Origin: Candidatus Uhrbacteria bacterium CG10_big_fil_rev_8_21_14_0_10_48_16
GTDB lineage: Bacteria > Patescibacteriota > Patescibacteriia > UBA9934 > GWF2-40-263
Direction: 5' to 3'
DNA: 64,000 nucleotides
NCBI GenBank assembly: GCA_002793515.1
Contig: PFEU01000008.1
Coordinates: forward strand, 6,824 to 70,823
Part shown: positions 7,746 through 58,428 of the stretch, piece by piece
How the letters are laid out: each line of letters opens with the position of its first letter
How positions within the stretch are numbered: the stretch's first letter is position 1
The notes under the pieces: model-generated
Database searches by the model: none
What the model was told of the DNA's origin: nothing
Seen by the model: only the letters and a program-made list of their open reading frames with translations
Made by a program: the position numbers and the translations under genes

Positions 7746-7753
7746 AAAAAAGA

Positions 7754-8201: not shown

Positions 8202-8212
8202 TATCATCAGAC

Positions 8213-10144: not shown

Positions 10145-10201
10145 GTATCCTTTTTTCCGAGAGGATCATACAAGATCCTCCCGAAAAGATCAATCCTCCC
10201 A

Positions 10202-10939: not shown

Positions 10940-10945
10940 ACACGC

Positions 10946-11365: not shown

Positions 11366-11415
11366 AGATGGTTATTGGATCTTATCAGTTAGAACGCTCT
11401 GGTCAAATCGTTTAT

Positions 11416-30508: not shown

Positions 30509-30526
30509 AGAGTTTCTAAGTCCCTT

Positions 30527-31426: not shown

Positions 31427-31464
31427 GGACCAAATTCAAACGGAAACAATGATTTAGCCAAAAC

Positions 31465-39519: not shown

Positions 39520-40335
39520 ATGGCTGAATACGTGATCAAACCCAAACGCCCCATCGGTCTTCATCTCAAAGAAATATGGCGATTTCGTGAGTTATTCTTA
39601 GCACTCACCGTCCGAGACATGAAGGTTCGTTATAAGCAAACGGCCATTGGCGTCCTCTGGGCTGTATTTCAACCGTTCATTCTCATGGTTGTCTTTACGA
39701 TTTTCTTTGGTCGCATCGCACAAATAAGCACCAATGGTGTTCCCTACCCGATCTTTGTCTATAGTGGCTTGTTGTTCTGGAACTATTTTTCAAATGCCTT
39801 AAGCGCCGCAAGTGGAAGCATGGTCGCCAACCAAGCGATCATTCAGAAAATCTATTTTCCTCGTATCATTTTGCCCACAGCTTCTGTTGTGGTGTTTTTG
39901 TTAGATTTTATTTTTTCATCCATCATCTTTGCTGGCCTCCTGATTTACTATCACGTCACACCAAACATCACCGGCCTCTTATTATTAGTTCCCATGCTAC
40001 TCATTACCACCCTCACGCTTCTTGGCATCGGATTATTTTTTTCTGCTGTGAACGTCAAGTACCGTGATGTCCGCTATGTCCTTCCATTCTTTATTCAACT
40101 CCTTCTTTTTGTGACTCCGGTCATCTACCCAGCTACGATTTTAGGAGAATATAAATGGTTGCTCTACCTCAATCCCATGTCTGGAGTCATTGATGTCTTC
40201 CGAAGTACGTTTTTGTCACTTGGTTCTATTTCATGGCCCCTATTTGGAAGTTCGATTCTTGTAAGCATCATCTTTTTTCTTGTTGGTCTTGCCTACTTCC
40301 AAAAAACAGAACGCTATTTCGCTGATCTTATTTAG
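39520..40335 (+). CDS. wzm: ABC-2 type polysaccharide/O-antigen exporter permease (Wzm/TagG family)
   Basis: 271 aa, 6 TM. N-terminal cytoplasmic helix plus ABC2_membrane features (RDMKVRYKQTAIGVLWAVFQP…). Confidence 0.85.
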   Translation: MAEYVIKPKRPIGLHLKEIWRFRELFLALTVRDMKVRYKQTAIGVLWAVFQPFILMVVFTIFFGRIAQISTNGVPYPIFVYSGLLFWNYFSNALSAASGSMVANQAIIQKIYFPRIILPTASVVVFLLDFIFSSIIFAGLLIYYHVTPNITGLLLLVPMLLITTLTLLGIGLFFSAVNVKYRDVRYVLPFFIQLLLFVTPVIYPATILGEYKWLLYLNPMSGVIDVFRSTFLSLGSISWPLFGSSILVSIIFFLVGLAYFQKTERYFADLI

Positions 40336-40336
40336 T

Positions 40337-41596
40337 ATGGATCCTATCATTCGCGTCGAACATCTCGGAAAAAAATATCGGATCAAACATACGCAAAAAG
40401 GCTATGTTGCTCTGCGTGACGTGGTAGCAAACCTCTTTTCTTGGCGTTACTGGTTTCGTTCATCAAAAAAAGAACAGGAAGATTTTTGGGCTCTCCAAGA
40501 CGTGAACTTTGAAGTCCAAAAGGGCGAAGTCCTTGGAATTATTGGAGCAAACGGTGCTGGAAAATCGACCCTCCTAAAAATCTTGTCGAGCATCACCCCA
40601 CCTACGAACGGGGAAGTTCACATGAATGGACGAGTCATCAGTCTTTTGGAAGTAGGCACAGGGTTCCATCCAGAGTTAACGGGGCGTGAAAATATTTATC
40701 TCAACGGAGCCATCCTCGGAATGACACGCAAAGAAATTGAACAGAAATTCGATGCCATTGTTGCTTTCTCAGGAGTTGAAACGTTTTTAGATACTCCGGT
40801 AAAACGATTTAGTAGCGGAATGCAGGTTCGATTAGCATTTGCGGTTGCGGCACATTTAGAACCAGATATTTTGATCATCGACGAAGTTCTTGCCGTCGGT
40901 GATGCATCGTTTCAAAAAAAGTGTTTAGGAAAAATGGAGGAGGTCACAAAACAAGATGGCCGAACGATTTTATTTGTGAGCCACAACATGGATGCCATTG
41001 CGAAACTCTGCCAACGTTCGTTACTGCTTGATCATGGAAAGGTGATCGCAGACGGGCCAACAGATGACGTCATTGCGCGCTACCTAAACAACCACGAACA
41101 AACGCGAGCAGAGGTCACACTCACCCCTCCAGAGACTCTCGATATTGCCATCCGTTCTATCGCGATTAAGAATGACCGTGGAGCACTCTCAAATCGACTC
41201 GAGACAGGAAAACCCTTTACGATCGAAATTGAATACGAACTCAAAAAAGACGCGCATGAGGTCTATGCAGGGGTTGCGTTTATTGATCTAAAGACACAAA
41301 TTTCTGTCTTGGACACACTTGATATCGATCAAAATAAGGACCACTATCCCTTGCGAAAAAAGGGAATGTATCGTTCACTATTCACGTTTCAAGAAAATCC
41401 GTTTAATCACGGAAGATATAAGCTCTTTGTGCATATCGGATCTTTCCCTGCCACACAAACCACTCTTCATCTATCTGACGGCGATCTCACCATAACCTTC
41501 GTTTCAGGAGAAACCTTTGCGACAGATGTTCTCGATGGCACACGAAACTCAACCATGCTCCTCAACATTCCCAGTGAGATTATAAAAATTGGTTAA
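40337..41596 (+). CDS. wzt: Polysaccharide ABC exporter ATP-binding protein (Wzt/TagH) with a C-terminal carbohydrate-binding (Wzt_C-like) extension
   Basis: Walker A GANGAGKST, ABC signature FSSGMQVRLAFAVA, Walker B ILIIDEVLAVGD. Then a C-terminal extension of about 170 aa (…TLTPPETLDIAIRSIAIKNDRGA…YKLFVHIGSF…TITFVSGETFATDV) predicted to be a beta-sandwich. The ORF-track start at 40280 is TTG; the ATG is at 40337. Confidence 0.85.
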   Translation: MDPIIRVEHLGKKYRIKHTQKGYVALRDVVANLFSWRYWFRSSKKEQEDFWALQDVNFEVQKGEVLGIIGANGAGKSTLLKILSSITPPTNGEVHMNGRVISLLEVGTGFHPELTGRENIYLNGAILGMTRKEIEQKFDAIVAFSGVETFLDTPVKRFSSGMQVRLAFAVAAHLEPDILIIDEVLAVGDASFQKKCLGKMEEVTKQDGRTILFVSHNMDAIAKLCQRSLLLDHGKVIADGPTDDVIARYLNNHEQTRAEVTLTPPETLDIAIRSIAIKNDRGALSNRLETGKPFTIEIEYELKKDAHEVYAGVAFIDLKTQISVLDTLDIDQNKDHYPLRKKGMYRSLFTFQENPFNHGRYKLFVHIGSFPATQTTLHLSDGDLTITFVSGETFATDVLDGTRNSTMLLNIPSEIIKIG

Positions 41597-42666: not shown

Positions 42667-43725
42667 ATGCCTCACACACCCATTAAAATATTTGGAAAAA
42701 CGATTGGAGAAGGATATCCAACCTTTTTTATTGCAGAAATAGGATTGAACCACAATGGTTCCATGGACATCGCAAAACAGCTCATAGACGTAGCGGTCAA
42801 CGCCGGATGTGACGCCGTGAAGTTTCAAAAACGAGACATTGAGAGCTTGTCTGTTCGTTCTTTTCTTGATGCTCCTGACACGCGATTCCCTGAGTTTGGC
42901 TCCACCTATCGAGAGGTTCGTGAATTTGTTGAGTTCTCAGAAGAAGAGTTCACCGAACTAAAAAGGTATGCCCAAGAAAAAGAGATTCCATTTTTCGTCA
43001 CCCCTTTTGACATTCCCTCCGCGCAAATGCTCGCACGCATCGGGGTCGACGCCTATAAAAGTGCAAGTCATAATCTGACGCACATTCCTTTGTTGAAGCA
43101 TCTCATCGCCCAACAAAAGCCCATGATTGTTTCCACAGGAATGGCCATGCTTGAAGAGCTAGATCTTGCCGTGAATCTCCTTAAAGAATCCAACATCCCA
43201 TTTGTTTTACTCCATTGCGTCTCTTCCTACCCTACCGCACCTGAACTCATCAATCTCAAAACCATCGACTTTTTGCGAGAGCGCTACCAGGTTCCTGTTG
43301 GCTACTCGGGTCATGAAATGTTGGAAACCGAAAGCCTCCCAACCCTTTCAGCTGTCGCACGAGGTGCCTGTGTCGTAGAGCGTCACATCACTCTTGATCA
43401 CCACATGGTTGGGTTCGATCACAAAATTTCATTAACCCCCAATGAACTCCAGAAACTCATGGGGCAAATTCGTTCGATCGACAAAATGATGGGAACAGGC
43501 TTAAAAACGTTGTTACCGGAAGAACGAATCAAACGCGATCAACAACGTGTTTCCCTTGTTTCCTCTCGCAAAATCTCCGCAGGAGAAATCATCCAACCTG
43601 ATATGGTCTGTTTCAAAGGTCCTGGAACCGGTTTTGCCTGTTATGACCTGGATCAGATTGTGGGGAAATCAGCTATCACAGATATCGACGAAGACACCCT
43701 ATTCCAGGCTGAAATGTTTAACTGA
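42667..43725 (+). CDS. neuB: Nonulosonic acid (sialic-acid-like) synthase, NeuB/PseI/LegI family
   Basis: IGEGYPTFFIAEIGLNHNGSMDIAKQLIDVAVNAGCDAVKFQKR, a TIM-barrel NeuB signature, plus a C-terminal SAF domain (…GPGTGFACYDLDQIVGKSAITDIDEDTLFQAEMF). Confidence 0.9.
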   Translation: MPHTPIKIFGKTIGEGYPTFFIAEIGLNHNGSMDIAKQLIDVAVNAGCDAVKFQKRDIESLSVRSFLDAPDTRFPEFGSTYREVREFVEFSEEEFTELKRYAQEKEIPFFVTPFDIPSAQMLARIGVDAYKSASHNLTHIPLLKHLIAQQKPMIVSTGMAMLEELDLAVNLLKESNIPFVLLHCVSSYPTAPELINLKTIDFLRERYQVPVGYSGHEMLETESLPTLSAVARGACVVERHITLDHHMVGFDHKISLTPNELQKLMGQIRSIDKMMGTGLKTLLPEERIKRDQQRVSLVSSRKISAGEIIQPDMVCFKGPGTGFACYDLDQIVGKSAITDIDEDTLFQAEMFN

Positions 43726-44529: not shown

Positions 44530-45252
44530 ATGAACACGTCAGATTCGGGTCCCCGCATTTTAGCGATTACGCTCGCACGTGGTGGAAGTAAAAGTGTGCC
44601 AAGAAAAAATATTCGCCCGCTTCTTGGGAAACCGATGATTGCGTATACCATCGAAGAAGCGCTGAAGTCGAAATTCATCACACACTACGTCGTCTCAACA
44701 GAAGATAAAGAGATTGCAGACGTAGCAAAAACATACGGAGCGGATGTTCCTTTTTTGCGTCCAGAGGAACTCGCCACAGACACAAGTGCGTCAAAACCCT
44801 GCTTGCAACATGCAACAGCCTATATGGAAGATCAATTGGGTCGCCCCTTTGATTACGTTGTGGAACTCATGGCAACGAACCCACTAAAAACCGTAGAAGA
44901 TATTGACACCGCATTAGAAAAGTTAATCTCAACAGGAGCTGACTCTGTCATTGGTGTCATTCAAATTCACGATCAGCATCCATTACGTGTGAAAAAGATC
45001 GTCGATGACAAACTTGTCGACTTTTGTTTACCAGAACCCAATGAGGCGCGACGGCAAGATCTACAACCTGATGCATTTTTGCGAAATGGTTCTATCTACG
45101 CGATGAAACGTGATGTGCTCATGATTCAAGATCGACGATATGGAACAGAAAACTCGCGCCCGTATATTTTCAGTCCTGAACGCTCGGTCAATGTGGATTC
45201 ATTAGAAGACTGGTATCTTGCAGAGATGCGCCTAAAAAATCGGCAATCGTAA
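44530..45252 (+). CDS. neuA: CMP-nonulosonic acid synthetase (acylneuraminate cytidylyltransferase family, NeuA/PseF/LegF-like)
   Basis: ILAITLARGGSKSVPRKNIRPLLGKPMIAYTIEEALKS is the CTP_transf_3 N-terminal signature. Confidence 0.85.
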   Translation: MNTSDSGPRILAITLARGGSKSVPRKNIRPLLGKPMIAYTIEEALKSKFITHYVVSTEDKEIADVAKTYGADVPFLRPEELATDTSASKPCLQHATAYMEDQLGRPFDYVVELMATNPLKTVEDIDTALEKLISTGADSVIGVIQIHDQHPLRVKKIVDDKLVDFCLPEPNEARRQDLQPDAFLRNGSIYAMKRDVLMIQDRRYGTENSRPYIFSPERSVNVDSLEDWYLAEMRLKNRQS

Positions 45253-45257: not shown

Positions 45258-46199
45258 ATGAACATCCTTTGTCTCACACCCATTAAGCACCTTTCGGGGG
45301 TGTTTGAACTCCTTTCTTCATACGGATCTGTTGACTACCAACCGGAATTCACGAAGGAACAGCTGATGGACTACCTGAAAGCGCATCAGGATGTTGATGC
45401 GCTCTTTGTAAATCCAAATAAGCAAAACTATAAACTTGACGCAGAAATTCTTGCTGGAAGTTCCGTCACATTGATCAATACCGCGTCAACTGGACTCAAC
45501 CATATTGATGTTGCTTGGTGTAAAAGACAAAACATTAACATCCTTTCGTTAACCGAAGACCACGAGCTCATCAAACGTCTTCCTTCTACATCAGAACTTG
45601 CCTTCGGTTTAATGCTTTCACTCCTTCGTCATATTCCCTCTTCCTTTGACGCGGTGAAGCGTGGCGCATGGGACTACGAACCCTTTATCGGTCATCAAAT
45701 TGAAGGTCTTACCGCCGGAATCGTTGGTTATGGACGCCTCGGAACATTCATGGCAAAGTACTGTCACGCGTTTGGGATGCGGGTCCTCGTCACAGATCCG
45801 TACAATCCTGTGTACGGATTCGATCGAGTCTCCCTAGAGGAACTCGCGCAAGAATCTGATGTCATCTCCTTACATGTTCACGTCACAGATGAAACCAGAC
45901 ACATGATCAACGCCTCCTTTATTTCAGCCACACAGAAAAGTCCGTATCTGATTAATACGTCACGAGGAGAAATTGTCGATGAACAAGCCGTGCTTGAGGG
46001 GTTGCAATCAGGAAAACTCCGAGGCTACGGAACGGATGTGATCGAAGACGAATTTGGAAATCGTGCGGAAAGTCCTATTATCCAAGCGGCACATTCTGAT
46101 CTGAATGTGCTCATCACCCCCCATACCGGTGGAATGACCTGGGAAGGTCAACAACGCGCCTACACATGGGCCGTCGAAAAGTTTAATCCTCTTTCTTGA
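45258..46199 (+). CDS. D-isomer-specific 2-hydroxyacid dehydrogenase family NAD-binding oxidoreductase
   Basis: GIVGYGRLGTFMAKYCHAFGMRVLVTDPY Rossmann motif, and the catalytic region …NTSRGEIVDEQAVLEGLQSGKLRGYGTDV…HTGG. Confidence 0.8.
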   Translation: MNILCLTPIKHLSGVFELLSSYGSVDYQPEFTKEQLMDYLKAHQDVDALFVNPNKQNYKLDAEILAGSSVTLINTASTGLNHIDVAWCKRQNINILSLTEDHELIKRLPSTSELAFGLMLSLLRHIPSSFDAVKRGAWDYEPFIGHQIEGLTAGIVGYGRLGTFMAKYCHAFGMRVLVTDPYNPVYGFDRVSLEELAQESDVISLHVHVTDETRHMINASFISATQKSPYLINTSRGEIVDEQAVLEGLQSGKLRGYGTDVIEDEFGNRAESPIIQAAHSDLNVLITPHTGGMTWEGQQRAYTWAVEKFNPLS

Positions 46200-46208: not shown

Positions 46209-46853
46209 ATGAGTAAGCTTTCCGTGATTATTCGATGTCGAGATGAAGAACGCTGGATTGGGCACGCCATCCAATCGGTATTAGATTTTGTTGACGATCC
46301 AGAAATTTTAGTCATCAACAACAAGTCAAAAGATGATTCGCTGTTGATCGTTCGACAATTCGCAGGATTCGATACGGTCCGCGTCTTAGACATTGATGAT
46401 TATTCCCCTGGAAAGGCTCTTAACTTGGGCGTCCAAGAAGCAACGAGTGACCTCATTCTCGTTCTCTCAGCACATTGTGTCTTGAAAAAATTCGATCTCC
46501 CAAACATCGCGAAAGCCCTCTCTACACACAAAGCAGTTTTTGGAAAACAACATCCAATCTACCAAGGACGAAAGATCACTCCACGATATCTCTGGGCAAA
46601 CTTTCATGACAGAGAAGAAGAGAATGCGTATTCAAAACTCGAGGACCGACTCTTCTTACATAATGGGATGTGTGTGTACCGGCGCGACATCCTTCTCGAA
46701 CATCCTTTTGACGAACAGCTTGCCGGAAAAGAAGATCGCTACTGGGCGCGCGATATCGTAAAAGCGGGATATACCTATCTCTACAGCCCATCCCTCATGG
46801 AATGTGATCACCATTGGACCACAGACGGAAATACGTGGAAAGGAATAGGGTAA
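46209..46853 (+). CDS. Glycosyltransferase family 2-like (short, 214 aa)
   Basis: LSVIIRCRDEERWIGHAIQSVLDFV…ILVINNKSKDDSLLIVRQF matches the GT-A N-terminal nucleotide-binding pattern. The DxD equivalent is LDIDDYSPG. Confidence 0.6.
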   Translation: MSKLSVIIRCRDEERWIGHAIQSVLDFVDDPEILVINNKSKDDSLLIVRQFAGFDTVRVLDIDDYSPGKALNLGVQEATSDLILVLSAHCVLKKFDLPNIAKALSTHKAVFGKQHPIYQGRKITPRYLWANFHDREEENAYSKLEDRLFLHNGMCVYRRDILLEHPFDEQLAGKEDRYWARDIVKAGYTYLYSPSLMECDHHWTTDGNTWKGIG

Positions 46854-46858: not shown

Positions 46859-47698
46859 ATGCGCGACGATATTTGTGTATTGCTGACTTCAGCAATCGAA
46901 GTCAAAAATAAACATCTCGTGAAGCGCCATGACACCGCGACACGTCTTGAGGATTACAAACGCGCCCTACGTAGCTGGCTCACAAAACAAACGCACGTTC
47001 AACACATCGTCTTTGTCGATAACTCTGGATATCCTCTGGATACACTCAAGCACATCGCTGAGACAGAAAACGTTCATGGAAAACACGTAGAATTCCTTTC
47101 CTTCCACTATGACACCACCGGTGATAGCGATATTAGCTTAGGCGAAATCGCTATTTTGGATTATGCCCTCAATCACTCACAAACTCTGAAGAACACATCC
47201 TATTTTATCAAGTGTACGGGAAGAGTATTTGTTGAGAATATCGATCATATTGTCCAAGATCTCCCTGAAACATTTCATGCCGTCGCTCGGTTTTCTGAAA
47301 ACCTAAGTTACATTGATAGCGTGATCATGATTTTCGAGACGCACATGTACCGCGAAGACATGCACCCTCTGATTGCACAAACCATGAAACAGCCAAATGG
47401 AAAAACAGATTTTGAACGCGCCTACGCCAAAGTCCTTCATGAACTCTTAGCGAAAGACTACCAATGGTTTCCGTTCAGTCACGAACCTATTTTCTCAGGA
47501 ATGTCTGGAACAAAAAATCAGTCGTATAGAAAAAAATACGGTCGATTCCAATCTCTCTGGTACTCCGTCATCTCACATATGTTTTACAAACGTTATAGAA
47601 CAAGCTGGGGAAAAAGCTCAGGTCGCGAACATTTGCTCGTCCGTTGGAACATTCAGCCTGAACGAGGAACTTGCTCATCGAATAAAGATTCTCTCTAA
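46859..47698 (+). CDS. Hypothetical protein (possible uncharacterised glycosyltransferase-like)
   Basis: 279 aa from the ATG at 46859; the ORF-track start at 46814 is TTG. Has …HIVFVDNSGYPLD… but no motif I can assign confidently. Confidence 0.45.
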   Translation: MRDDICVLLTSAIEVKNKHLVKRHDTATRLEDYKRALRSWLTKQTHVQHIVFVDNSGYPLDTLKHIAETENVHGKHVEFLSFHYDTTGDSDISLGEIAILDYALNHSQTLKNTSYFIKCTGRVFVENIDHIVQDLPETFHAVARFSENLSYIDSVIMIFETHMYREDMHPLIAQTMKQPNGKTDFERAYAKVLHELLAKDYQWFPFSHEPIFSGMSGTKNQSYRKKYGRFQSLWYSVISHMFYKRYRTSWGKSSGREHLLVRWNIQPERGTCSSNKDSL

Positions 47699-47706: not shown

Positions 47707-48708
47707 ATGTCAGAACACTCAAAAAAACGTGCACTCATTACCGGAATTACCGGACAAGATGGAAGCTATCTTGCTGAATTTTTATTGGAACAGGGATATG
47801 AAGTGCATGGCATCATGCGCCGTTCCTCCACCTTTAACACCTGGCGCATCGAACATCTCTACGGGAGTGAGGACTTCTCTCATCCAAAAAATGACTTCCA
47901 TCTCCATTACGGAGATCTGACCGATGCCATGAGCATTGCTGCCATCATCAAGCAGGTTCAGCCAGATGAAATCTATAATCTTGCTGCCATGAGCCATGTG
48001 CGTGTGTCATTCGATGTTCCAAAATTTACCCTTGAAACAAATACGCTTGGAGCCCTAAACATTTTGGAATACATCCGTCACCACGCACCACACATCAAGT
48101 ATTATCAAGCTTCAAGTTCCGAAATGTTTGGAGCGACAACGGATGCTCCTCCCTTTAATGAGCATACGCGATTCATGCCACAGAGCCCGTACGGCATTTC
48201 AAAACTAGCCTCGTTTCATCTCACAAGACATTACCGAAACAGCTATGGTCTCTTTGCAGTAAATGGAATTCTCTTCAATCACGAAAGTCCTCGCCGTGGA
48301 GAAACGTTTGTGACTCGCAAAATTACTCGTGCCGTTGCCTCCATTCTTGCAGGAGAAATGGATACCCTCTACATGGGGAATCTTGATGCCGTCCGAGACT
48401 GGGGACATTCAAAAGATTATGTCCGAGCGATTCACCTGATGCTCCAACAAGAGGCTCCTGATGAATATGTCGTCGCAACCGGAGAAGCTCACTCCATCAA
48501 AGAAGCTCTGCAATATTGTTTTGAGGAGGCGGGTCTTGATTGGACACAGTATGTAAAGATTGATCCAAAGTACTTCCGCCCAAGCGAAGTCCCCTATCTC
48601 CAAGGAGACTCACGCAAGATTCGAGCGATTGGGTGGGAACCGGAATACAACTGGAAAACACTTCTTAAAGAAATGCTCGAGGAAGATATTAGACGTTCAC
48701 AAAAATAG
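47707..48708 (+). CDS. gmd: GDP-mannose 4,6-dehydratase
   Basis: KRALITGITGQDGSYLAEFLLEQGYEVHGIMRRSSTFNTWRIEHLY…, YxxxK (YGISKLAS), and the full Gmd architecture. Confidence 0.95.
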   Translation: MSEHSKKRALITGITGQDGSYLAEFLLEQGYEVHGIMRRSSTFNTWRIEHLYGSEDFSHPKNDFHLHYGDLTDAMSIAAIIKQVQPDEIYNLAAMSHVRVSFDVPKFTLETNTLGALNILEYIRHHAPHIKYYQASSSEMFGATTDAPPFNEHTRFMPQSPYGISKLASFHLTRHYRNSYGLFAVNGILFNHESPRRGETFVTRKITRAVASILAGEMDTLYMGNLDAVRDWGHSKDYVRAIHLMLQQEAPDEYVVATGEAHSIKEALQYCFEEAGLDWTQYVKIDPKYFRPSEVPYLQGDSRKIRAIGWEPEYNWKTLLKEMLEEDIRRSQK

Positions 48709-48711
48709 TGT

Positions 48712-49098
48712 ATGAAATCTATTGAAAAAGACGGAGTCCTCATCGCGATTCACTTTGACGGAACATTTACCGAAGGTACCCAACCGCAAACAGACGAAGG
48801 ATTTCCCCTCCAGGTTCTTTCCTTGAAGCACCCAAAGGGAAAAATTCTTTTGGCGCATGCTCACACCCCACGTGATCGAACCACACACGAACTCATGGAA
48901 TGTCTCGTCGTGTTATCTGGGCGCATCCTTGCCAACATTTTTCATGAAAACGAACTCTTTGAATCAATCGAGATGGGACCTAAGGAAGCACTGATGCTTG
49001 TCCGCGGTGGAGTCGGGTATGAAATACTAGAAGACGCGGAAATGATGGAGTTTAAAAATGGCCCCTACCTGGAAGACAAATCGCTCATCAACGCATAA
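48712..49098 (+). CDS. WxcM/FdtA-like cupin (putative NDP-4-keto-6-deoxyhexose 3,4-ketoisomerase or epimerase)
   Basis: 128 aa. LAHAHTPRDRTTHELMECLVVLSGRI fits the FdtA-type cupin HxH…E…CL.G pattern. Gene position is immediately 3' of gmd. Confidence 0.5.
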   Translation: MKSIEKDGVLIAIHFDGTFTEGTQPQTDEGFPLQVLSLKHPKGKILLAHAHTPRDRTTHELMECLVVLSGRILANIFHENELFESIEMGPKEALMLVRGGVGYEILEDAEMMEFKNGPYLEDKSLINA

Positions 49099-49099
49099 T

Positions 49100-49675
49100 A
49101 TGACCGATGAATCTTCTCCCTCAACGCAACCGGTTCAACTGCATCTAGGATGTGGAAAACGTTTCATTCCAGGCTTCGTACATATCGATCTTGCCGTTTT
49201 TGAACACATTGATTACACCCACCGGATCGATCAACTCCCCATGATCGAAACCCAGTCTGTGGACCTGATCTATGCCTGTCACGCATTCGAATATTTCGAC
49301 CGAGTGGAAGCTGTCACCGTTCTTCAAGAATGGGGACGTGTCCTTAAGCCAGGAGGGATCCTGCGATTAGCTGTTCCAGACTTTGCCTCGCTCATAGAGG
49401 TCTATCAGACCTACGGAGAACTTGGGCGAGTTATCGGTCCCCTCTTTGGAAGATGGCCCATTCCAGGAACAACAGAGACGGTCTACCACAAAACGGTTTA
49501 TGATTTTCATGACCTTCAAACCCTTCTCACCACAAATGGATTCGAACAGGTTCAACGCTATGACGCCCGCAAGACCTCGCATGCGCAGTATGATGACTAT
49601 GCGCAAGCCTATGTTCCCCACATGGATCAAAACGGCATATTAGTCAGCTTGAATGTGGAAGCACAGAAAATATAA
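49100..49675 (+). CDS. Class I SAM-dependent methyltransferase
   Basis: LHLGCGKRFIPGFVHIDL…LKPGGILRLAVPDF. Start chosen at the ATG at 49100, 1 nt after the upstream stop; the ORF-track start at 49058 overlaps the upstream gene. Confidence 0.65.
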   Translation: MTDESSPSTQPVQLHLGCGKRFIPGFVHIDLAVFEHIDYTHRIDQLPMIETQSVDLIYACHAFEYFDRVEAVTVLQEWGRVLKPGGILRLAVPDFASLIEVYQTYGELGRVIGPLFGRWPIPGTTETVYHKTVYDFHDLQTLLTTNGFEQVQRYDARKTSHAQYDDYAQAYVPHMDQNGILVSLNVEAQKI

Positions 49676-49688
49676 GATCGACATCTCT

Positions 49689-50453
49689 ATGGAACGAACA
49701 GAAAAAAAGACCGTTGAAGAGGTTGTGTCTCATGGAAACATCGACGCACAATACGTCCTAGATCATCCCGAGATGTTCCATGAGAAATCCATCCGCACAG
49801 CAAAGCAACACGCACAGCGCTATCAATTTGCAAAACGCTTTGTCAAAGACAAACACGTGTTAGACATCGCTTGTGGAACAGGTTATGGATCTCGGATTCT
49901 TGATGTGCACTCCTACGCAAGCTATATCGGAGTTGATATCGATCCAGATTCGATCGAACTCGCAAAAGAACGTTACGCGCCAAACAATCCGCGCGCCGTT
50001 TTTTTTACGGATGATGCAACCTCTTTACGGCACACGCCCATTCCTTCTGAATCCATAGACGTGGCTATTTCTTTTGAAACCATTGAGCACACTCCCTTCT
50101 ACAGAGATTTTTTAAAACACATGCATGATAAACTGAAGAAGGATGGACTGTTTATCGTCTCTACCCCGAATCGAGATGTTACCCATCCTGGAACAGATTT
50201 TTCTCACAAACCCACCTGGGACTTTCATACCCAAGAATGGGTCCTTGAAGAATTTTTAGCGTTGTTGGATGAAGAAAAATTCTCTCCCGTGCAGATCTAT
50301 GCGCAATCGTTCCGTGCCCACAAACTGTTCGGCTTCAACATTCCAGGTCTTGGAAGAATCCTCAGACATCTTTCTCTAACCGTTGTCCCATGGAACCTCT
50401 TTCGGTTTTTCGGGAAAGCAAATTTTTATATTCTGGTATGCAAAAAGAAGTAA
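49689..50453 (+). CDS. Class I SAM-dependent methyltransferase
   Basis: VLDIACGTGYGSRILD…AISFETIEHT…DGLFIVSTPN. An alternative in-frame ATG lies at 49653. Confidence 0.65.
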   Translation: MERTEKKTVEEVVSHGNIDAQYVLDHPEMFHEKSIRTAKQHAQRYQFAKRFVKDKHVLDIACGTGYGSRILDVHSYASYIGVDIDPDSIELAKERYAPNNPRAVFFTDDATSLRHTPIPSESIDVAISFETIEHTPFYRDFLKHMHDKLKKDGLFIVSTPNRDVTHPGTDFSHKPTWDFHTQEWVLEEFLALLDEEKFSPVQIYAQSFRAHKLFGFNIPGLGRILRHLSLTVVPWNLFRFFGKANFYILVCKKK

Positions 50454-51541
50454 CGCCATTCATTCCACAAACAGCTCCTTCCTACGGACACAAAGAGCGA
50501 GAAGCCATCGATCTGTATTTACAGTCCAATGCCTGGCTCACAGAATTTGAAAAAACCATTGCTTTTGAACAAGAGATCGCGAAACGCGCAACGACGACCT
50601 ACGCCAGCGTCGTCCCCAATGGAACAATTGCCCTTTTTCTGGCATTCACCGCACTCGGAATCAAAAAAGGAGACGAGGTCATCGTTCCAAATCTCACCAT
50701 GATCGCGACCCCAAATGCCGTACAGCTGGCCGGTGGAACACCTGTTTTCGCGGACGTGGATTCAGAGAGTCTTTGTCTCAATCCCGATGAAGTAGCCCGT
50801 CTCATCACTCCACGCACAAAAGCGGTTTGTCACGTATCTCTCGGAGGTCGCGTAGGACGCATGGAATCTCTTATGGAGTTGTGCCGTGAAAAAGGCATTC
50901 CCCTGGTCGAAGATGCCGCTCAAGCATTTGGATCATCCCATCGGGGGAAACCGGTTGGGTCCTTTGGGGACATCGGGATTTATTCTTTCACCCCACACAA
51001 AATCATCACGACCGGCCAAGGTGGAGCCCTTGTCACCAACCGAGAAGATCTCTATCAAGCGATCGAGCGGTTAAAGGACTTTGGGCGATTACAAGGAGGA
51101 GGTGATCACCACGATCATCTTGGTTGGAATTTTAAGTTCACAGATCTTCAGGCGGTCCTGGGTCTGGTACAGCTCGAAAATTTGGATGAACGCATCGACA
51201 AAAAACGAGAAATTTTTGCTCACTATCAATCGCAACTCACAGACGTTCCGGGAGTGACAATGCTTCACACGAATCTCGAGGAAACAACACCCTGGTTTAT
51301 CGAAGTCTTTGTTGAAAAGCCTCTTGCACTTGCATCGTTTTTGAAAGAGCAAGGGATTGGTACTCGTCCCATGTATCCAGCAATCCATACCCAACCTATC
51401 TACGCGCACATCCAAGGCGAATTTCCTGTAAGCACACACGCAGGAGCTCATGGACTCTGGCTTCCCTCCTCTTTGTCCCTGACCCCATCTGAGATCACGC
51501 GCATCTGTAATGCGGTAAAAGAGTTCCTTCGTTTTGTATGA
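50438..51541 (+). CDS. DegT/DnrJ/EryC1/StrS-family PLP-dependent nucleotide-sugar aminotransferase
   Basis: Conserved TPFIPQ…; the internal-aldimine Lys lies in SFTPHKIITTGQGGALV; overall fold-type I layout. Confidence 0.9.
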   Translation: MQKEVTPFIPQTAPSYGHKEREAIDLYLQSNAWLTEFEKTIAFEQEIAKRATTTYASVVPNGTIALFLAFTALGIKKGDEVIVPNLTMIATPNAVQLAGGTPVFADVDSESLCLNPDEVARLITPRTKAVCHVSLGGRVGRMESLMELCREKGIPLVEDAAQAFGSSHRGKPVGSFGDIGIYSFTPHKIITTGQGGALVTNREDLYQAIERLKDFGRLQGGGDHHDHLGWNFKFTDLQAVLGLVQLENLDERIDKKREIFAHYQSQLTDVPGVTMLHTNLEETTPWFIEVFVEKPLALASFLKEQGIGTRPMYPAIHTQPIYAHIQGEFPVSTHAGAHGLWLPSSLSLTPSEITRICNAVKEFLRFV

Positions 51542-53454
51542 CAACCTACTGTGCGATCGCCGAAACCCTTGAGGATCTTCGACAGATTCGAGCATGGGAG
51601 AAAAAGCACCATGCATCCGTTCATGTGATCGCCCTTTCTCTTGAAGTGCTCGCCGAAGACCCAACCGCAGAACACATTTGGAATCTCCTTCCCATGGACG
51701 ACATCCTCTTTGAATCCTACGAGACAACTCAGCGACTCGGAGGTCTTTGGAGCGAATCTGAAAATGATGAAGAGTCCCGCATGTACAAAGAGTCTCTTCG
51801 GTATCATTTAGTAGAAGAATGCTGGTTTCATGCGCACGTAAGTTTTTCCGTCGCATCGGCCCTTATTCCCCTCTTTCACGCCCGTCAGTGGACGCTTCTG
51901 ATTCCTCAGACAGACTCCTATTTCATTGGTCCCTACGCACCAAACTTTGCAACTGCAGGAAAACGAAATGCCATGTTCACATCGACCTGCATTTCTCTCT
52001 TTACCCAAGAGCATATTCCGATTCGTTATCTTGATATCAAAACGTCATGGATACACCTGTCTGCGAAGATCTCCCTCATGATTCAAGGCATCTCAAAAGT
52101 TCTTTTCGATGGGATTGATATTCTTCATGCTCGATGGGTTCGCAGACCAACTCTCCGCCAACAGCTCACACAGGTAAGCGCTTCTCAAACAATACAAATC
52201 CTCTTCTCGGGATGGGGGAAAGATTTCTCCCGCTTTTTTCGATACGATGTGTTTCGAAAACACGCGAAAGACGCATCTATACACATCACAAATCTTATCT
52301 GGAGAGCACAAAAAAATCCCCAGACCCATGAAGATGCATCAACCGGAGATTTTCAAGAAGTGATTTTAAAAGAAGATATTCGACAACATGTCACGTATGG
52401 CTTGCGCTTGTCGTTGTTTCCCCTCTCCGTCTTCTGGAAGCGCTTCTTGTTTCTCAAAAAAACAATTCCTTCTCTCAAAAAATCTATTCAAGTCCTCTCA
52501 CACGATTATCCGGTTCTTCAGAACCCAATCGTGCAAGCAAACTCCCTCCAAATCTGTCTGTTTGGGATGCATTCAATATTTCTAGGCGCATGGACTCTCG
52601 AACACACACGTAAAAAATATCCAACTCTGACAACCTATGTGGGTTCTGACAGTGGCGGAGTTGAGGAACGTTTTGAACTGTTATGGGCAAAACAACAAGG
52701 ATTAACAGCCTTCAGTATTCCTCATGGATTTTTCGCATTTGCTGAACAGCCTTATTGGTATCTCGCGGATCATCTTCTCACGCAGACATCAGCAACCGCA
52801 CAACTTCTTCAAGCCCTTGGACGACCTCGCTCGGAAATCTCAGTGGTAGGTGCATTTCTTCCACAACAAAAACCACACCTCCTCGACAACCGAAAAATTC
52901 GAATCGTCATCGGAACACGTTCTCGTCGAGGACTTTGGTCAAACATGAGCTCTAAACATCATCTCTATCACGAAACCATCCATACCCTCATAGACACATT
53001 ACTGAACGATGAACGATTTGAAATCATCATCAAGTCACATCCAAATGGAGATCTGAGTGAGTACTACGACACGCTTGTTGCACAGAAAAAACATGCACGA
53101 CTCTCGCATGTTTCCAAAGGATGGAAGTCTGATGTTTTTGTGAGTCAAACAGATGTTCTTGTCTGCCTGGGAGAGGCTCCAAGTCTTCTCCTAGATGCCC
53201 TGTATGCACGTGTTCCCATTGTCTTTATTGAAGGAACGATGACTCGCGTGCTACAAAACATGCACTATGATTACCAGCAGGTTGCCCGAGTGGTCTCGAA
53301 TGGAACGGAAGCAGTGAATGCCATTCTTGAGATGACAAAAGACCAGACCTCGTATGAAGAATCTCTTCTTCCTCAAAACACCATGCTCGAGCGGTATGCC
53401 TTAGGAACCCACCCTGAAAAACAACTCATTGAATCCCTCAAACGCTATGTCTAA
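51538..53454 (+). CDS. Hypothetical 638-aa protein; C-terminal domain resembles HP-motif GT-B-like capsule/nonulosonate/Kdo transferases (KpsC/KpsS or sialyltransferase-like). Assignment is tentative.
   Basis: C-terminal region IRIVIGTRSRR…ERFEIIIKSHPNGDLSEYYD…VLVCLGEAPSLLLDALYARVPIVFIEGTM contains a K-x-HP motif in a Rossmann-like context. No TM segments. Sits between the aminotransferase and a GT gene. Confidence 0.45.
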   Translation: MTTYCAIAETLEDLRQIRAWEKKHHASVHVIALSLEVLAEDPTAEHIWNLLPMDDILFESYETTQRLGGLWSESENDEESRMYKESLRYHLVEECWFHAHVSFSVASALIPLFHARQWTLLIPQTDSYFIGPYAPNFATAGKRNAMFTSTCISLFTQEHIPIRYLDIKTSWIHLSAKISLMIQGISKVLFDGIDILHARWVRRPTLRQQLTQVSASQTIQILFSGWGKDFSRFFRYDVFRKHAKDASIHITNLIWRAQKNPQTHEDASTGDFQEVILKEDIRQHVTYGLRLSLFPLSVFWKRFLFLKKTIPSLKKSIQVLSHDYPVLQNPIVQANSLQICLFGMHSIFLGAWTLEHTRKKYPTLTTYVGSDSGGVEERFELLWAKQQGLTAFSIPHGFFAFAEQPYWYLADHLLTQTSATAQLLQALGRPRSEISVVGAFLPQQKPHLLDNRKIRIVIGTRSRRGLWSNMSSKHHLYHETIHTLIDTLLNDERFEIIIKSHPNGDLSEYYDTLVAQKKHARLSHVSKGWKSDVFVSQTDVLVCLGEAPSLLLDALYARVPIVFIEGTMTRVLQNMHYDYQQVARVVSNGTEAVNAILEMTKDQTSYEESLLPQNTMLERYALGTHPEKQLIESLKRYV

Positions 53455-54559
53455 ACGTATTGCCTTCATTTTTACGGGCGGACGAAAAATCAAGCTCCCA
53501 GACATTCGCTCTGGTTCATCTCCAGAAGATTTTTTTTATGGAGCCCTCGAACTCCAGCGAAGAGGCTATGACATTGATTTTCTCGAGGATGCCGATTTCA
53601 ATTCGGTGAAACTTTCTCTTTGGAAGAGGATAAAAAATCGTATTCCCGTGAACTATCGGTTATTCGATGAAACGGCGATTGAACGCTTCCATTCGAAAAA
53701 AGCTCTGCAACGACTCAACCAGTATGACATCCTCATCACCACAAACAACTCAGACGGTCTTGCGTTAGCCTATCTCAAAAAACAAAAGAACCTACGCTCG
53801 TCCATTATTTTTCTTTCGATGTGTCCCATCAAACCCCCAGACTCTTGGGTGAAGAAAAGACGTATGGAGATCTACCTCAACGAAATGATCTGGGGAGTGG
53901 AGAATACCCATGAGATCGACTTCCTCAAACATCTCTACCCTTCAAAAAAGATGCAGATACACTACATTCCTTTTGGGGTGGATGAGACATTCTGGAAGCC
54001 AGGAAGGAACGTCGCAAATCCCCCCTATGTTCTGAGTATGGGAAATGATAGTGGACGCGATTTCAACACGCTCATCAACGCATGGAAACCAGAATACCCA
54101 ACACTCAAACTCATTACACGGAGACCCCTTCCCCCGCTTCCCCAGAACATCGAGCATATTCAAGGAGACTGGGCCAAACAATATCTGACAGATGAGGCCA
54201 TTCGTACCGCTATTCAAGAAAGTTTGTTTGTTATTATCCCGGTCAAAGAAACGCTTCTTGCATCAGGACCAAGTGTTGCCATGCAGACTATGGCGTGCCA
54301 AAAAGCCCTTATTATTAACAAAACGAAAGGCTTATGGGCTCCTCACCTTCTACAAGATGGGGTCAACTGCTTACTGCCTGACCTACGTGAGCCAAACGCA
54401 TTCGCGCAATCCATTGAATCTCTTCTGAATGATGAGTCATTCCGTGATACGATTGCTCAAGGTGGAAGAACACTCTTTTTAGAACACTTTACAGTCAGTT
54501 CGATTGCGGACAGACTCGAAAAACTCCTCCCTCTTGTAGACACAAAAACAGCATCTTGA
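53447..54559 (+). CDS. Glycosyltransferase (GT-B fold, group-1-like)
   Basis: C-terminal LFVIIPVKETLLASGPSVAMQTMACQKALIINKTKGLWAPHLLQDGVNCLLPDLREP resembles the GT4 donor-binding half. The ORF-track start at 53429 is TTG; the ATG is at 53447. Confidence 0.55.
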   Translation: MSKRIAFIFTGGRKIKLPDIRSGSSPEDFFYGALELQRRGYDIDFLEDADFNSVKLSLWKRIKNRIPVNYRLFDETAIERFHSKKALQRLNQYDILITTNNSDGLALAYLKKQKNLRSSIIFLSMCPIKPPDSWVKKRRMEIYLNEMIWGVENTHEIDFLKHLYPSKKMQIHYIPFGVDETFWKPGRNVANPPYVLSMGNDSGRDFNTLINAWKPEYPTLKLITRRPLPPLPQNIEHIQGDWAKQYLTDEAIRTAIQESLFVIIPVKETLLASGPSVAMQTMACQKALIINKTKGLWAPHLLQDGVNCLLPDLREPNAFAQSIESLLNDESFRDTIAQGGRTLFLEHFTVSSIADRLEKLLPLVDTKTAS

Positions 54560-55703: not shown

Positions 55704-56528
55704 ATGTCTATCAGCGTAATCATGTCCGTCTATAATGGCGAACGGTTTCTCCGTGACGCTGTGTTAAGTGTGCTCGATCAAACCTTTCACGATATTGAAT
55801 TGCTTGTCATCGATGATGCTTCAACGGATGGAACACTCCACCTCCTCGAGGAACTCGCCTCACGTGACTCCCGCATCCGCATCCTCACCAACTCGACGAA
55901 CCTGGGACTTACTAAGTCACTCAACCGTGCCCTTATGCACGCTCAAGGAGAGTTTATCGCCCGGCTGGACGCTGACGACATCGCCTTCCCTTCCCGACTC
56001 GAGAAACAACTCGCCTTCCTTGCCTCACATCCTGACATCGACATCGTGGGTACCGCCTACGAGTGGATCGACGAGCACGGCAACGTCATCGGTCGCCCAA
56101 ACGTCATCACCGACCCAGACGACATCCACCGGACGTTCCCACGCACCAACCCGCTCCTTCACAGCTCAGTCCTGATGCGCAGACACCTCCTTGATTCCAC
56201 AGGAGGATACGATGCGTCCTACAAAAAAGCCCAGGACTACGCGCTGTGGTTAAGACTTGCCCCCACCCACCGATTTGCAAATCTCCCTGAGATTCTCACA
56301 CAAAAACGTCTCAGCAAAGACATGCTCTCCTATGCGAGTGAGCGAAGTCAGCTTCGGTTCGCCGTCCGAGCACGCTATGAGGCACTTAGGCGCGGAGACT
56401 ACCCAATGTGGTATTTTATCTACATCTTGAAGCCGTTCATCGCCTCCATCCTTCCACGTGCTGTTGTTCGATGGATTCGGATTCACCTCTTTCATCAACG
56501 TCAGTATGAGCATCCAACCCTTCGATAA
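55704..56528 (+). CDS. Glycosyltransferase family 2
   Basis: MSISVIMSVYNGERFLRDAVLSVLDQTFHDIELLVIDDASTDGT…ARLDADDIAFPSRL is a classic GT-A/DxD signature. Confidence 0.85.
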   Translation: MSISVIMSVYNGERFLRDAVLSVLDQTFHDIELLVIDDASTDGTLHLLEELASRDSRIRILTNSTNLGLTKSLNRALMHAQGEFIARLDADDIAFPSRLEKQLAFLASHPDIDIVGTAYEWIDEHGNVIGRPNVITDPDDIHRTFPRTNPLLHSSVLMRRHLLDSTGGYDASYKKAQDYALWLRLAPTHRFANLPEILTQKRLSKDMLSYASERSQLRFAVRARYEALRRGDYPMWYFIYILKPFIASILPRAVVRWIRIHLFHQRQYEHPTLR

Positions 56529-58428
56529 GTATCTCACACGTGCATTGGGTCTCTTTGTGTTTCTTGCATTTCTCAGTCCCGTTTTTTTCTGGCCAACATT
56601 CTATGCTCCCTTCTCAAGTCTGACGCTGATCAGCTTTTTCTTTTGTGTAGAGATTGCTCTCCCATGCTATCTCCTTCTTTTGTCCCAGAAAAAACATCCC
56701 TTCGATGCATTTCATCACCCCGTCATTCGTGCAATCGCCCTTCTCATGCTTGTCATGATCCTTTCTTCCTTTGTTGGAGTAGACCCATTGAATAGTTTTC
56801 TTGGGACCATTGATCGTCCCGTGAGTGTTCTTGTCTACATCCACGGATTCCTTCTTCTTCTCTATACGCTTGAACTGTTCTCACGCGATGGGCGATGGAA
56901 AACACGGATCTCTCTTCTTATCATAAGCATAGCATCCGTCATCGCCTTGTACACCTTCGGAGAAGGGTGGCTATGGCCCACGTTTGTAACGTTTGAAGGG
57001 CGTACCGCAAGTCTCCTTGGAAGCCCGAATTATCTTGCGAGCTTCCTGATTCTCCCCACATTTTTGTCTATCGCCTATGCGTCAAACGTACACAAAAAAA
57101 TGCGACCCATTTTTTGGATGCTTGCCTTGAGCATGGTGATCGCCATCGTCTTATCAGGGACGCGTGGTGCCCTGCTTGGACTCATCGTAGGAGCTCTTAT
57201 CTTGGTAACCCCCTCTAGCTCCCCCTTAAAAAGGGGGAGGACCGGAGGTCTTGGCACCCGTGTCTCTAAAAGAATGCTCCTGGCGGGTCTGCTGACATTC
57301 CTCGGAGTGTTTCTGGTGTTCAGTGTGACGAATGTAAACTCGCTCATGGAACGCTTCACACAAACAACAGATGCAAATAGTTCTATGCGTCTCGTCTACT
57401 GGAACATGGCCGTTGAAGGCTGGAAGGAACACTCATTTCTTGGAGTCGGACCAGGAAATTTCTATACCATCGCAGACCCAGCGTTTACTCCCGATCTCTA
57501 TCAGCACACACACGCCTGGCCAGATAGCCCTCACAGCACCTTGTTCGAACGCCTCTCAACAACAGGACTTTTTGGACTATTTGCATGGTTCCTATTCCTC
57601 TTTTTCCTCATGCGCGCCCTGTGGCAACATCGTACACAGCCTGCCAACATCGCTCTTCTTGCGGGTATCATCGCGTACCTCGTTCAGGGATTATTCTTCT
57701 TCGACGGGATAAGTGATTTCATTCTGTTTCTCTTCGTCATTGCATGGACCTGTACATCCACCCCCTCAACCACCCATCAGGAACACCGATCTCCCTCTTT
57801 CCTCCTGGGAGGCGCTGGAGGGGTTCTTGCTCTCACAGGAATCTTCTTTCTCATCCTCCCCTTGCGCACAGAAGTTGCTCTGGCAGGAAAACAGCTTCTC
57901 CCTCAACAACAGATCATCATCGACGACCTGCTCATTTCTCAAACCGCTTTTGAACGTGCCACAACCTTGAACACGACACAGGACCCCGCTCACGTTCAGG
58001 AAGCCATAGACCTCTATGTCGAGAGTCTCGATCGTCACCCTCTCCGACAACAAGCCTGGAATGACCTCGCTTGGCTTTACTACATTCAAGCGTTCCTCCA
58101 ACAGACCATCGTGAGTGAAGAAGGAATCCTTTCGGCACAAAGAGCGATCCAACTTGCTCCCGGACGAATAGAAGCCACATCAACCCTTACGCAAATGCTC
58201 TTGCACACAGCTACCATTGCCTCAGAACAACAGCAGTACCCTCTCCTCATTGAGACTTACCTCTCGCTCATTGAACTTCAGCCGACGACGTATTCCTACC
58301 TTGCAAATCTTGCGACAAGTTACGCTCTTAATGGACAGATCGAAGAAGCGATCACAACAGCCAATACCCTAAAGCACCTTGACCCCCAGAGCACAGAATC
58401 CGTAAATGCCTTTTTAGAGAGCTTGTAA
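56506..58428 (+). CDS. Wzy_C (O-antigen ligase/polymerase-like) membrane protein fused to C-terminal TPR repeats
   Basis: About 11 TM helices; Wzy_C core LSGTRGALLGLIVGALILV. The C-terminal 200 aa are helical TPR-like (…WNDLAWLYYIQAF…LANLATSYALNGQIEEAI…). The ORF-track start at 56458 is GTG; the ATG is at 56506. Confidence 0.7.
   Translation: MSIQPFDKYLTRALGLFVFLAFLSPVFFWPTFYAPFSSLTLISFFFCVEIALPCYLLLLSQKKHPFDAFHHPVIRAIALLMLVMILSSFVGVDPLNSFLGTIDRPVSVLVYIHGFLLLLYTLELFSRDGRWKTRISLLIISIASVIALYTFGEGWLWPTFVTFEGRTASLLGSPNYLASFLILPTFLSIAYASNVHKKMRPIFWMLALSMVIAIVLSGTRGALLGLIVGALILVTPSSSPLKRGRTGGLGTRVSKRMLLAGLLTFLGVFLVFSVTNVNSLMERFTQTTDANSSMRLVYWNMAVEGWKEHSFLGVGPGNFYTIADPAFTPDLYQHTHAWPDSPHSTLFERLSTTGLFGLFAWFLFLFFLMRALWQHRTQPANIALLAGIIAYLVQGLFFFDGISDFILFLFVIAWTCTSTPSTTHQEHRSPSFLLGGAGGVLALTGIFFLILPLRTEVALAGKQLLPQQQIIIDDLLISQTAFERATTLNTTQDPAHVQEAIDLYVESLDRHPLRQQAWNDLAWLYYIQAFLQQTIVSEEGILSAQRAIQLAPGRIEATSTLTQMLLHTATIASEQQQYPLLIETYLSLIELQPTTYSYLANLATSYALNGQIEEAITTANTLKHLDPQSTESVNAFLESL

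Follow-up and report, generated by a model that had tools for sequence, protein, structure and literature searches.

A rare GT-B protein family tied to a CMP-sugar-acid gene cassette in a glycan locus of a candidate-phyla-radiation bacterium

For nonulosonic and other ulosonic acids of bacteria, few transferases have been described, and these have been found in mutually unrelated glycosyltransferase (GT) families, including GT118 (2024) and GT140 (2026). Here we analyse a 64-kb stretch of DNA (the window) from Candidatus Uhrbacteria bacterium CG10_big_fil_rev_8_21_14_0_10_48_16, a member of the candidate phyla radiation (CPR). The window encodes an ATP-binding cassette (ABC)-transporter-dependent glycan locus and, within it, a 638-aa protein, here called X638. 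Among the closest described systems, sialyltransferases and retaining 3-deoxy-d-manno-oct-2-ulosonate (Kdo) transferases share (K/R)XHP, a motif that binds cytidine monophosphate (CMP) and whose K/R contacts cytosine; the retaining Kdo transferases also carry, upstream of HP, a QXXXD nucleophile motif comprising an Asp nucleophile and a Gln (PMC12887879). One of them, WbbB, caps the Klebsiella O12/Raoultella O-antigen with β-Kdo, and GT140 shows that Kdo transferases can be without sequence similarity to known families (PMC12887879); the WbbB-capped glycan is read by Wzt. GT-B sialyltransferases carry a D/E-D/E-G motif, and mutation of their HP motif raises the Michaelis constant (Km) for CMP-N-acetylneuraminic acid (CMP-Neu5Ac) (PMC2169525). 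In TagF, the catalytic H444 lies in a WHG/QHG motif and H584 binds donor phosphates (PMC11666461), and in the S-layer glycan of Tannerella forsythia the terminal pseudaminic or legionaminic acid (Pse/Leg) is added by the TagB-like GT-B, HP-motif proteins Tanf_01245 and TFUB4_00887 (PMC5420450). The UDP-N-acetylglucosamine (UDP-GlcNAc) 2-epimerases use D95, E117 and E131 (E. coli numbering) as acid/base residues (PMC11464976).

We tentatively favour X638 as a GT-B transferase of a new family that uses a CMP-activated ulosonic acid made by the products of neighbouring genes, a reading to which we give slightly less than an even chance; a motif and the gene neighbourhood point to this donor. An open reading frame (ORF) and translation check placed the gene at 51538..53454 on the plus strand, with an ATG start and 638 codons for amino acids. 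Its start shares 4 nt with the stop of a DegT-type aminotransferase gene (50390..51541) at an ATGA junction. An earlier note on this DNA had given these coordinates, this overlap and three peptides, all of which were found, the peptides at residues 454–464 (IRIVIGTRSRR), 496–505 (IIIKSHPNGD) and 559–568 (VPIVFIEGTM). The exact sequence is deposited as PJE76913.1, "hypothetical protein COV05_01810". It had been described as a large soluble protein of no clear family, and both descriptions held: no transmembrane segment was predicted (the top Kyte-Doolittle 19-residue window was 1.37), the sole Pfam match was Glyco_trans_4_4 (E = 0.087, 13.6 bits), which gives no usable assignment, and NCBIfam returned zero matches. 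A basic amphipathic stretch at residues 293–320 could contact the membrane interface. Two other identities were dropped, a membrane protein on the absence of predicted transmembrane segments and a polysaccharide pyruvyl transferase on an E-value of 7. The gene and the protein features discussed below are as follows.

51538..53454, plus strand: X638 (PJE76913.1), enzyme with a GT-B fold, family undescribed (ORF, AlphaFold model, Foldseek)
51574..51576, plus strand: D13, Asp on the β1–α1 loop, candidate general base (25/25 homologues; modelled strand and helix positions)
52213..52233, plus strand: W226-G227-x-D229-x-x-R232, in a β-rich sub-domain of the insertion region (conservation)
52642..52671, plus strand: G369-S-D371-S-G-G...R378, N-domain loop, placed where WecB has D95 and sialyltransferases have the D/E-D/E-G motif (alignments)
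52720..52728, plus strand: P395-H396-G397, with a His after an N-domain strand, resembling TagF-like WHG/QHG and the 'PH' of WaaB (H396 in 25/25)
52915..52944, plus strand: T460-R-S-R-R-G465-L-W467-S-N, loop after the first C-domain strand (conservation, modelled secondary structure)
53032..53052, plus strand: K499-S-H501-P502-N-G-D505, (K/R)XHP-type motif, proposed cytidine-nucleotide and phosphate site (invariance, motif alignments)

X638 belongs to a very rare, undescribed and unannotated GT-B family. Searching 5.8 billion clusters by word index returned three relatives, with the single sequence and with a 47-member profile alike, and a full profile search with HMMER among 1.84 billion representatives returned 62 (26 below 1e-30; mostly 600–680 aa). 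None bears a name, and X638, once called an orphan, is not strictly one, given these 62 related representative clusters. Only one of 185,579 species-representative genomes, an uncultured gammaproteobacterial metagenome-assembled genome, carried a relative. Conservation was scored in 25 full-length homologues (19–90% identity) and in a wider set of 47 more distant relatives.

An AlphaFold (AF2) model built from the 25 homologues had a predicted local distance difference test (pLDDT) score of 91.7 and a predicted template modelling (pTM) score of 0.92; a first model from 4 sequences (pLDDT 58) was discarded in its favour. The model predicts, with high confidence, a two-domain GT-B enzyme, a fold whose active site lies in the cleft that separates two Rossmann-like domains. 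Searched against the PDB, the model drew 329 Foldseek matches at E ≤ 0.001; the best 50 listed were all GT-B enzymes. The top matches listed were the non-hydrolysing UDP-GlcNAc 2-epimerases 3beo, 7vz6 and 1f6d (E = 1e-9 to 1e-8; target-normalised TM-score of ~0.6), the best E-value being 7.6e-10; next came SenB, TagF (3l7j, 7e-8), NeuC (5zlr), the GT4 enzyme WaaB (5n80) and GT1 enzymes. Because the alignment covers ~455 columns, the GT-B fold spans most of the chain. Residues 351–446 make up the latter half of a GT4-like N-domain and residues 446–600 the C-terminal Rossmann domain, which is the best-conserved region; the insertions comprise long, poorly conserved helices (53–116, 167–212 and 296–360) and a β-rich piece (220–295). 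The GT-B-like fold had been anticipated, but only for the C-terminal 250 aa, with the N-terminal 350 aa suggested as a possible second domain, such as an acceptor-binding domain or a second transferase. The fold reaches far beyond that limit, and a separate N-terminal transferase was dropped because residues 351–446 complete the GT-B N-domain; the N-terminal part belongs to the same enzyme, plus insertions.

Consensus sequences of the family scored above the Pfam gathering cut-offs of Glyco_transf_4 (with 29.0 and 33.4 bits) and of Glycos_transf_1 (with 37.6 bits). A 47-member profile freed of Epimerase_2-like outliers matched the GT4 galactosyltransferase WaaB (5n7z) first, at E = 2e-6 over residues 349–442, and an archaeal 2-epimerase second, at 7e-5; an earlier distant-relative profile that still held four such outliers had found the archaeal 2-epimerase at E = 5e-8, and their removal brought WaaB to the top. 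The WaaB alignment pairs H396 and D371 of X638 with 'PH' (in an SWPHF segment) and 'AD'. From the WaaB match and the Pfam consensus scores, the family is therefore a deeply divergent GT-B lineage, nearest by sequence to genuine GT4 transferases. Other affinities were lower. Epimerase_2 reached 23.0 bits for the whole-family consensus (gathering score 30.6) and did not match X638 itself, DUF6716 matched the family consensus at E = 0.011, and Capsule_synth matched the distant-relative consensus only (E = 0.0048, 16.8 bits, cut-off 20) and not X638. Glyphos_transf (PF04464) matched neither X638 nor the family consensus, and two distant relatives matched it weakly. phmmer and a 25-member profile against PDB sequences gave only noise. 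Comparing the family profile by hhalign with the single E. coli sequences of KpsC, KpsS, NeuS, NeuE, NeuC and WecB gave probabilities of 0.4–8% (2–3% for KpsC and KpsS), and these alignments were used for motif register alone.

D13, W226, G227, H396, K499, H501, P502, D505 and P560 were invariant in 25/25 homologues, and H501 and P560 also across the 47 more distant relatives. Strongly conserved residues in the 25 were W467 (24/25), R378, T460, S462 and G465 (23/25 each), D371, R461, D229 and R232 (22/25 each) and E546 (20/25). K499-S-H501-P502 follows the second strand (494–499) of the modelled C-terminal Rossmann domain and pairs, in profile alignments, with KpsC IWVKVHP, KpsS VIKHHP and NeuS FIKPHP; H501 aligns with H213 of WecB (VYPVHLNP). 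Because a single [KR]xHP arises by chance, as it does in six other proteins of the locus, the weight of this motif lies in its invariance and position; no other GT-B protein of the locus carries it. The earlier note had taken K-x-HP as a hallmark of Kdo transferases, sialyltransferases and TagF-like enzymes. It is indeed invariant and aligns with KpsC, KpsS and NeuS, but brings no specific homology to those families. The T460-R-S-R-R-G465 loop, at the site where retaining Kdo transferases have QXXXD, likely binds phosphate, and D13, D371 and H396 are candidate catalytic bases. The W226-G227 motif aligns weakly with KpsS 'PGWLRDLHRQYD'.

The gene neighbourhood could supply such a donor. The locus opens with a Bac_transf initiating transferase, a sugar epimerase, GT4 enzymes, methyltransferases, Wzm and Wzt (with Wzt_C). 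Its middle holds, in order, a methyltransferase, NeuB, a TylF-type methyltransferase, CTP_transf_3, a 2-hydroxyacid dehydrogenase (2HADH), a small GT2 and a second orphan protein, unk294. GDP-mannose 4,6-dehydratase, a cupin, two methyltransferases and the DegT aminotransferase then precede X638, and a divergent GT4-like protein, a 367-aa protein, a GT2, a Wzy_C protein with tetratricopeptide repeats (TPR) and a GT4 follow it. The principal neighbours are listed here.

39520..41596, plus strand: Wzm (ABC-2 permease) and Wzt (ATPase with Wzt_C carbohydrate-binding domain), glycan exporter (family scan)
42667..43725, plus strand: NeuB-family ulosonic acid synthase (Pfam NeuB E = 5e-73; NCBIfam NeuB_NnaB 309 bits, cut-off 400)
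44530..45252, plus strand: CTP_transf_3 cytidylyltransferase (PseF/NeuA/KdsB-like), presumed maker of the CMP donor (family scan)
45258..46199, plus strand: D-2-hydroxyacid dehydrogenase (2HADH, 2-Hacid_dh) (family scan)
46209..46853, plus strand: small GT2, 214 aa, conserved cassette member (family scan)
46859..47698, plus strand: unk294, second orphan protein of 279 aa, ATG at 46859 (linkage to X638, fusions)
47707..51541, plus strand: GDP-mannose 4,6-dehydratase, cupin, two methyltransferases and DegT aminotransferase, a 6-deoxy-amino sugar pathway (family scan)
53429..54559, plus strand: divergent GT4-like protein after X638 (weak Glycos_transf_1 match)
56458..58428, plus strand: Wzy_C (O-antigen-ligase-like) plus TPR, candidate enzyme for glycan-to-carrier transfer (family scan)

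As had been proposed, NeuB/NeuA-type genes (at 42667 and 44530) occur here with no recognisable sialyltransferase: across 32.5–60.9 kb, 27 ORFs were scanned and not one matched the sialyltransferase, Capsule_synth or Glyphos_transf families, and scanning the locus ORFs revealed no further family known for CMP-sugar use.

This linkage recurs in other genomes. Part of the CTP_transf_3/2HADH/NeuB cassette lay near an X638 homologue in 11 of the 12 loci with enough flank, frequently together with Wzm/Wzt, and CTP_transf_3 itself in nine (the window, L001, L007, L008, L010, L015, L019, the P0017 contig and L020). Locus L022 has 2HADH at its edge. In L023, NeuB and 2HADH are present and only 81-aa and 57-aa ORFs occupy the expected cytidylyltransferase site (3335–4092); because coverage of this contig is low (3x), the gene is probably frameshifted or degraded. 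The sole locus without CTP_transf_3, 2HADH or NeuB within 10 kb of upstream sequence was L003, and L022, which is organised like it, has its 2-Hacid_dh at the edge. The order in L015 is Wzm-Wzt(Wzt_C)-NeuB-CTP_transf_3-2HADH-GT2-(unk294+methyltransferase)-X642, with the Wzm/Wzt pair directly upstream of the NeuB cassette; ABC genes are also found in L010 and L023. The divergent GT4-like gene follows the X638 homologue in L001, L002, L007, L016 and L019.

Two cassette members deserve separate mention. unk294 is adjacent to, or within the locus of, X638 homologues in L001, L006, L007, L013, L015, L016 and L019, is joined to the C-terminal end of the 925-aa X638 homologue P0013, and in L013 and L015 forms a fusion with a methyltransferase; by this genomic evidence it is functionally linked to X638. 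A further fusion, in L022, joins the small GT2 to a TylF-type methyltransferase. The unk294 family comprises 72 clusters, all 'hypothetical' or without names, and matched nothing in Pfam or the PDB; its conserved motifs, 'VFV(D/E)NSG' and 'TGRxF', hint at a possible GT-A-like fold. Its start is probably ATG 46859, the TTG at 46814 given by the ORF finder being too early. 2HADH adjoins CTP_transf_3 wherever both were seen (2HADH loci: the window, L001, L008, L010, L015, L019, L022 and L023). To our knowledge, no known nonulosonic acid pathway requires a 2-hydroxyacid dehydrogenase. Because this enzyme nonetheless accompanies the cytidylyltransferase, the activated sugar acid of the cassette may be unusual.

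In our preferred reading, X638 would be a peripheral, soluble transferase whose C-terminal Rossmann domain binds a cytidine-nucleotide donor through K499-x-H501-P502, the T460-R-S loop and E546. The donor would be a CMP-activated 3-deoxy-2-ulosonic (nonulosonic-type) acid supplied by the neighbouring NeuB-family synthase and CTP_transf_3, and the N-domain, together with the helical and β-rich insertions, would bind a lipid-linked glycan acceptor by way of D13, W226-G227, D371 and P-H396-G. CMP would be released and the sugar acid joined to a cell-surface glycan. By analogy with WbbB of Klebsiella O12/Raoultella, the residue would form a non-reducing-end cap: it is probably terminal, possibly methylated later, and probably recognised by the Wzt carbohydrate-binding domain before export. 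X638 probably works with unk294 and a methyltransferase.

Several observations weigh against this reading. The profile affinities favour first GT4 enzymes, which use nucleoside diphosphate (NDP) sugars, and then Epimerase_2, and the 50 Foldseek matches listed, which UDP-GlcNAc 2-epimerases lead, included zero sialyltransferase or Kdo-transferase structures. The archaeal epimerase 4neq carries 'IHP' at the HP position of X638, so a His-Pro pair by itself is not CMP-specific. QXXXD is absent, the site reading G-T-R-S-R-R-G-L-W-S-N with no conserved Q...D across the 25 homologues, and this absence suggests that X638 would act by direct displacement rather than through a covalent adduct. A strict D/E-D/E-G is likewise absent: G-S-D371-S-G-G has one acidic residue, and Ser before Gly. 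The ulosonic acid might be transferred by unk294 or by the divergent GT4-like neighbour instead. Moreover, X638 always directly follows variable 6-deoxy(amino)sugar genes, and L003 holds two X638 paralogues (7342–9180, 612 aa; 10001–12778, 925 aa) plus two aminotransferases, as well as an N-formyltransferase and a sugar C-methyltransferase; because of this placement and these paralogues, a deoxy-sugar transferase fits equally. Such an enzyme, a GT-B of the GT4 lineage that takes the GDP- or dTDP-6-deoxy(amino)hexose made upstream and works on the glycan backbone as a polymerising or adaptor transferase, seems to us unlikely, if a serious contender. The top sequence affinities (WaaB at E = 2e-6; Glyco_transf_4 and Glycos_transf_1) and the translational coupling to the aminotransferase in the window speak for it, as does the faster divergence of X638 between loci (32–38% identity, versus 53–79% for NeuB, CTP_transf_3 and 2HADH). 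However, GT4 enzymes have G-x-G/EX7E and not an invariant K-x-H-P, and of EX7E X638 keeps E546 while the second acidic residue is not conserved. The type of deoxy sugar also changes among loci (GDP-4-amino, FdtA-type 3-amino, N-formyl and C-methyl sugars), yet the donor-binding C-domain is the most conserved, and the locus already has several ordinary GT4 and GT2 genes.

Two further explanations, each improbable in our estimate, draw on other parts of the evidence. X638 might be a TagF-like phosphotransferase that moves an alditol-, glycerate- or hexose-phosphate, frees a nucleoside monophosphate and forms a phosphodiester: invariant P-H396-G and K-S-H501-P resemble in sequence the WHG (H444) and H584 of TagF (PMC11666461), TagF 3l7j was matched at E = 7e-8, the weak Glyphos_transf matches come from two distant relatives, and the 2HADH beside the cytidylyltransferase might make a hydroxy-acid unit. 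Against this, X638 itself has no Glyphos_transf match, and the locus has no CDP-glycerol or CDP-ribitol synthase of the TagD/TarI type, its sole cytidylyltransferase being of the CMP-sugar-acid type and paired with NeuB. The structural matches, headed by UDP-GlcNAc 2-epimerases (E = 1e-9 to 1e-8, TM ~0.6) and including NeuC 5zlr, raise instead the idea of an NDP-sugar hydrolase or 2-epimerase-like enzyme in a NeuC/LegG/PseG role, freeing a hexose for NeuB. Scans of the locus ORFs turned up neither an Epimerase_2 nor a PseG homologue, X638 follows an aminotransferase as LegG or PseG steps would, and it is NeuB-linked in most loci. Yet of the catalytic triad only D95 is kept, as the conserved D371, with Pro395 at the position of E117 and the non-conserved E403 at that of E131 (PMC11464976); Epimerase_2 scores stay below the gathering threshold (none for X638, 23 bits for the consensus); the large conserved insertions, tandem paralogues and unk294 fusion fit a simple hydrolase poorly; and L015 has the cassette without an aminotransferase.

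The proposal that X638 is the best candidate for nonulosonic acid transfer is therefore partly supported. Its fold, motif and linkage to CMP-sugar genes hold, whereas kinship with KpsC/KpsS and sialyltransferases and a two-module architecture fail; remote-homology and structure comparisons (profiles and the 50 Foldseek matches listed) upheld the GT-B fold and gave no specific homology to Capsule_synth, Glyphos_transf or sialyltransferases. A bolder form of our preferred reading, which we consider possible but rather doubtful, is that X638 founds a new CAZy family in which a GT4-derived scaffold has independently acquired (K/R)XHP and a TagF-like xHG and performs capping with unk294 and methyltransferases.

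Other features of the window and of the related loci were recorded. At 15962–18262 (plus strand), a gene of 62% G+C, where the remainder of the window has ~45%, codes for a 766-aa protein that contains FG-GAP repeats and putative metal-binding motifs of the MopE type; it could be a surface protein, or the gene could have been acquired horizontally. At 22730–29104 and 29267–32472 (both minus strand), a 2123-aa protein without a Pfam match lies beside three cohesin-, dockerin- and TSP3-repeat proteins. All of them sit immediately upstream of the glycan locus, as candidates for surface proteins that glycosylation might target. The 367-aa protein after the GT4-like gene (54581–55684, plus strand) weakly matches the prenyltransferase α-α toroid and has 53% identity to a counterpart in L013; another unannotated protein of this length follows the X638 homologue in L022. 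Three tandem Wzy_C plus TPR genes lie downstream of the cassette in L015 (17845–21929), compared with one in the window, and the P0017 contig opens with a truncated protein of 626 aa that matched nothing in Pfam and may be a further X638 paralogue.

X638 is a confidently folded candidate tied to a conserved CMP-sugar-acid cassette, and could add a family, and an enzyme for making capped glycans. The fusions (X638-unk294, unk294-methyltransferase and GT2-methyltransferase) and the constant 2HADH point to an undescribed sugar-acid pathway. In the bolder form of our reading, this modular chain-capping machinery would put an unusual, 2HADH-dependent, CMP-activated ulosonic acid on ABC-exported surface glycans in CPR and a few other uncultured bacteria. 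X638 could also offer an initial glimpse of the way in which ultra-small CPR bacteria decorate their surface glycans and export them.

Compared with known systems, X638 shares with the retaining β-Kdo/Pse transferases (GT99 WbbB, GT107 KpsC/KpsS, GT118 KpsS1 and GT140 KrkA) a GT-B-derived fold with large insertions, (K/R)XHP after the second C-domain strand, CMP-ulosonic acid genes and association with an ABC transporter. It differs in having neither QXXXD nor a Capsule_synth match, in a full-size, GT4-like N-domain where theirs is reduced, and in that none of them is among the 50 Foldseek matches listed. With the GT-B sialyltransferases (GT38 polysialyltransferases, GT52 and GT80) it has in common the C-domain HP (FIKPHP in NeuS), an acidic N-domain residue (D371) and, presumably, a CMP-nonulosonate donor; unlike them, it has no strict D/E-D/E-G and no Pfam or profile similarity, and is a protein of 638 aa with three helical insertions. 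The TagF/TagB-like enzymes (Glyphos_transf) show a two-histidine signature that the X638 sequence resembles, with xHG in its N-domain and K-x-HP in its C-domain, a Foldseek match through TagF and a CMP leaving group, the last presumed for X638, whereas X638 has no Glyphos_transf match, its locus has no CDP-alditol genes, and PHG replaces WHG. The UDP-GlcNAc 2-epimerases (Epimerase_2: WecB, MnaA and NeuC) are the best structural match among the 50 listed, with H501 at the position of H213 and D371 at that of D95, but X638 has no equivalents of E117 and E131, is below the Pfam threshold, has ~260 extra residues and carries K-x-HP where they have P-V-H-x-N-P. GT4 (WaaB, 5n7z) gives the best sequence-profile match (E = 2e-6), and the family consensus passes Glyco_transf_4 and Glycos_transf_1, whereas X638 alone scores 13.6 bits, has K-x-HP at the end of the glycine-rich GT4 strand and an incomplete EX7E. 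What is new here is a GT4-like scaffold combined with cytidine-nucleotide motifs, in a cassette with 2HADH and unk294.

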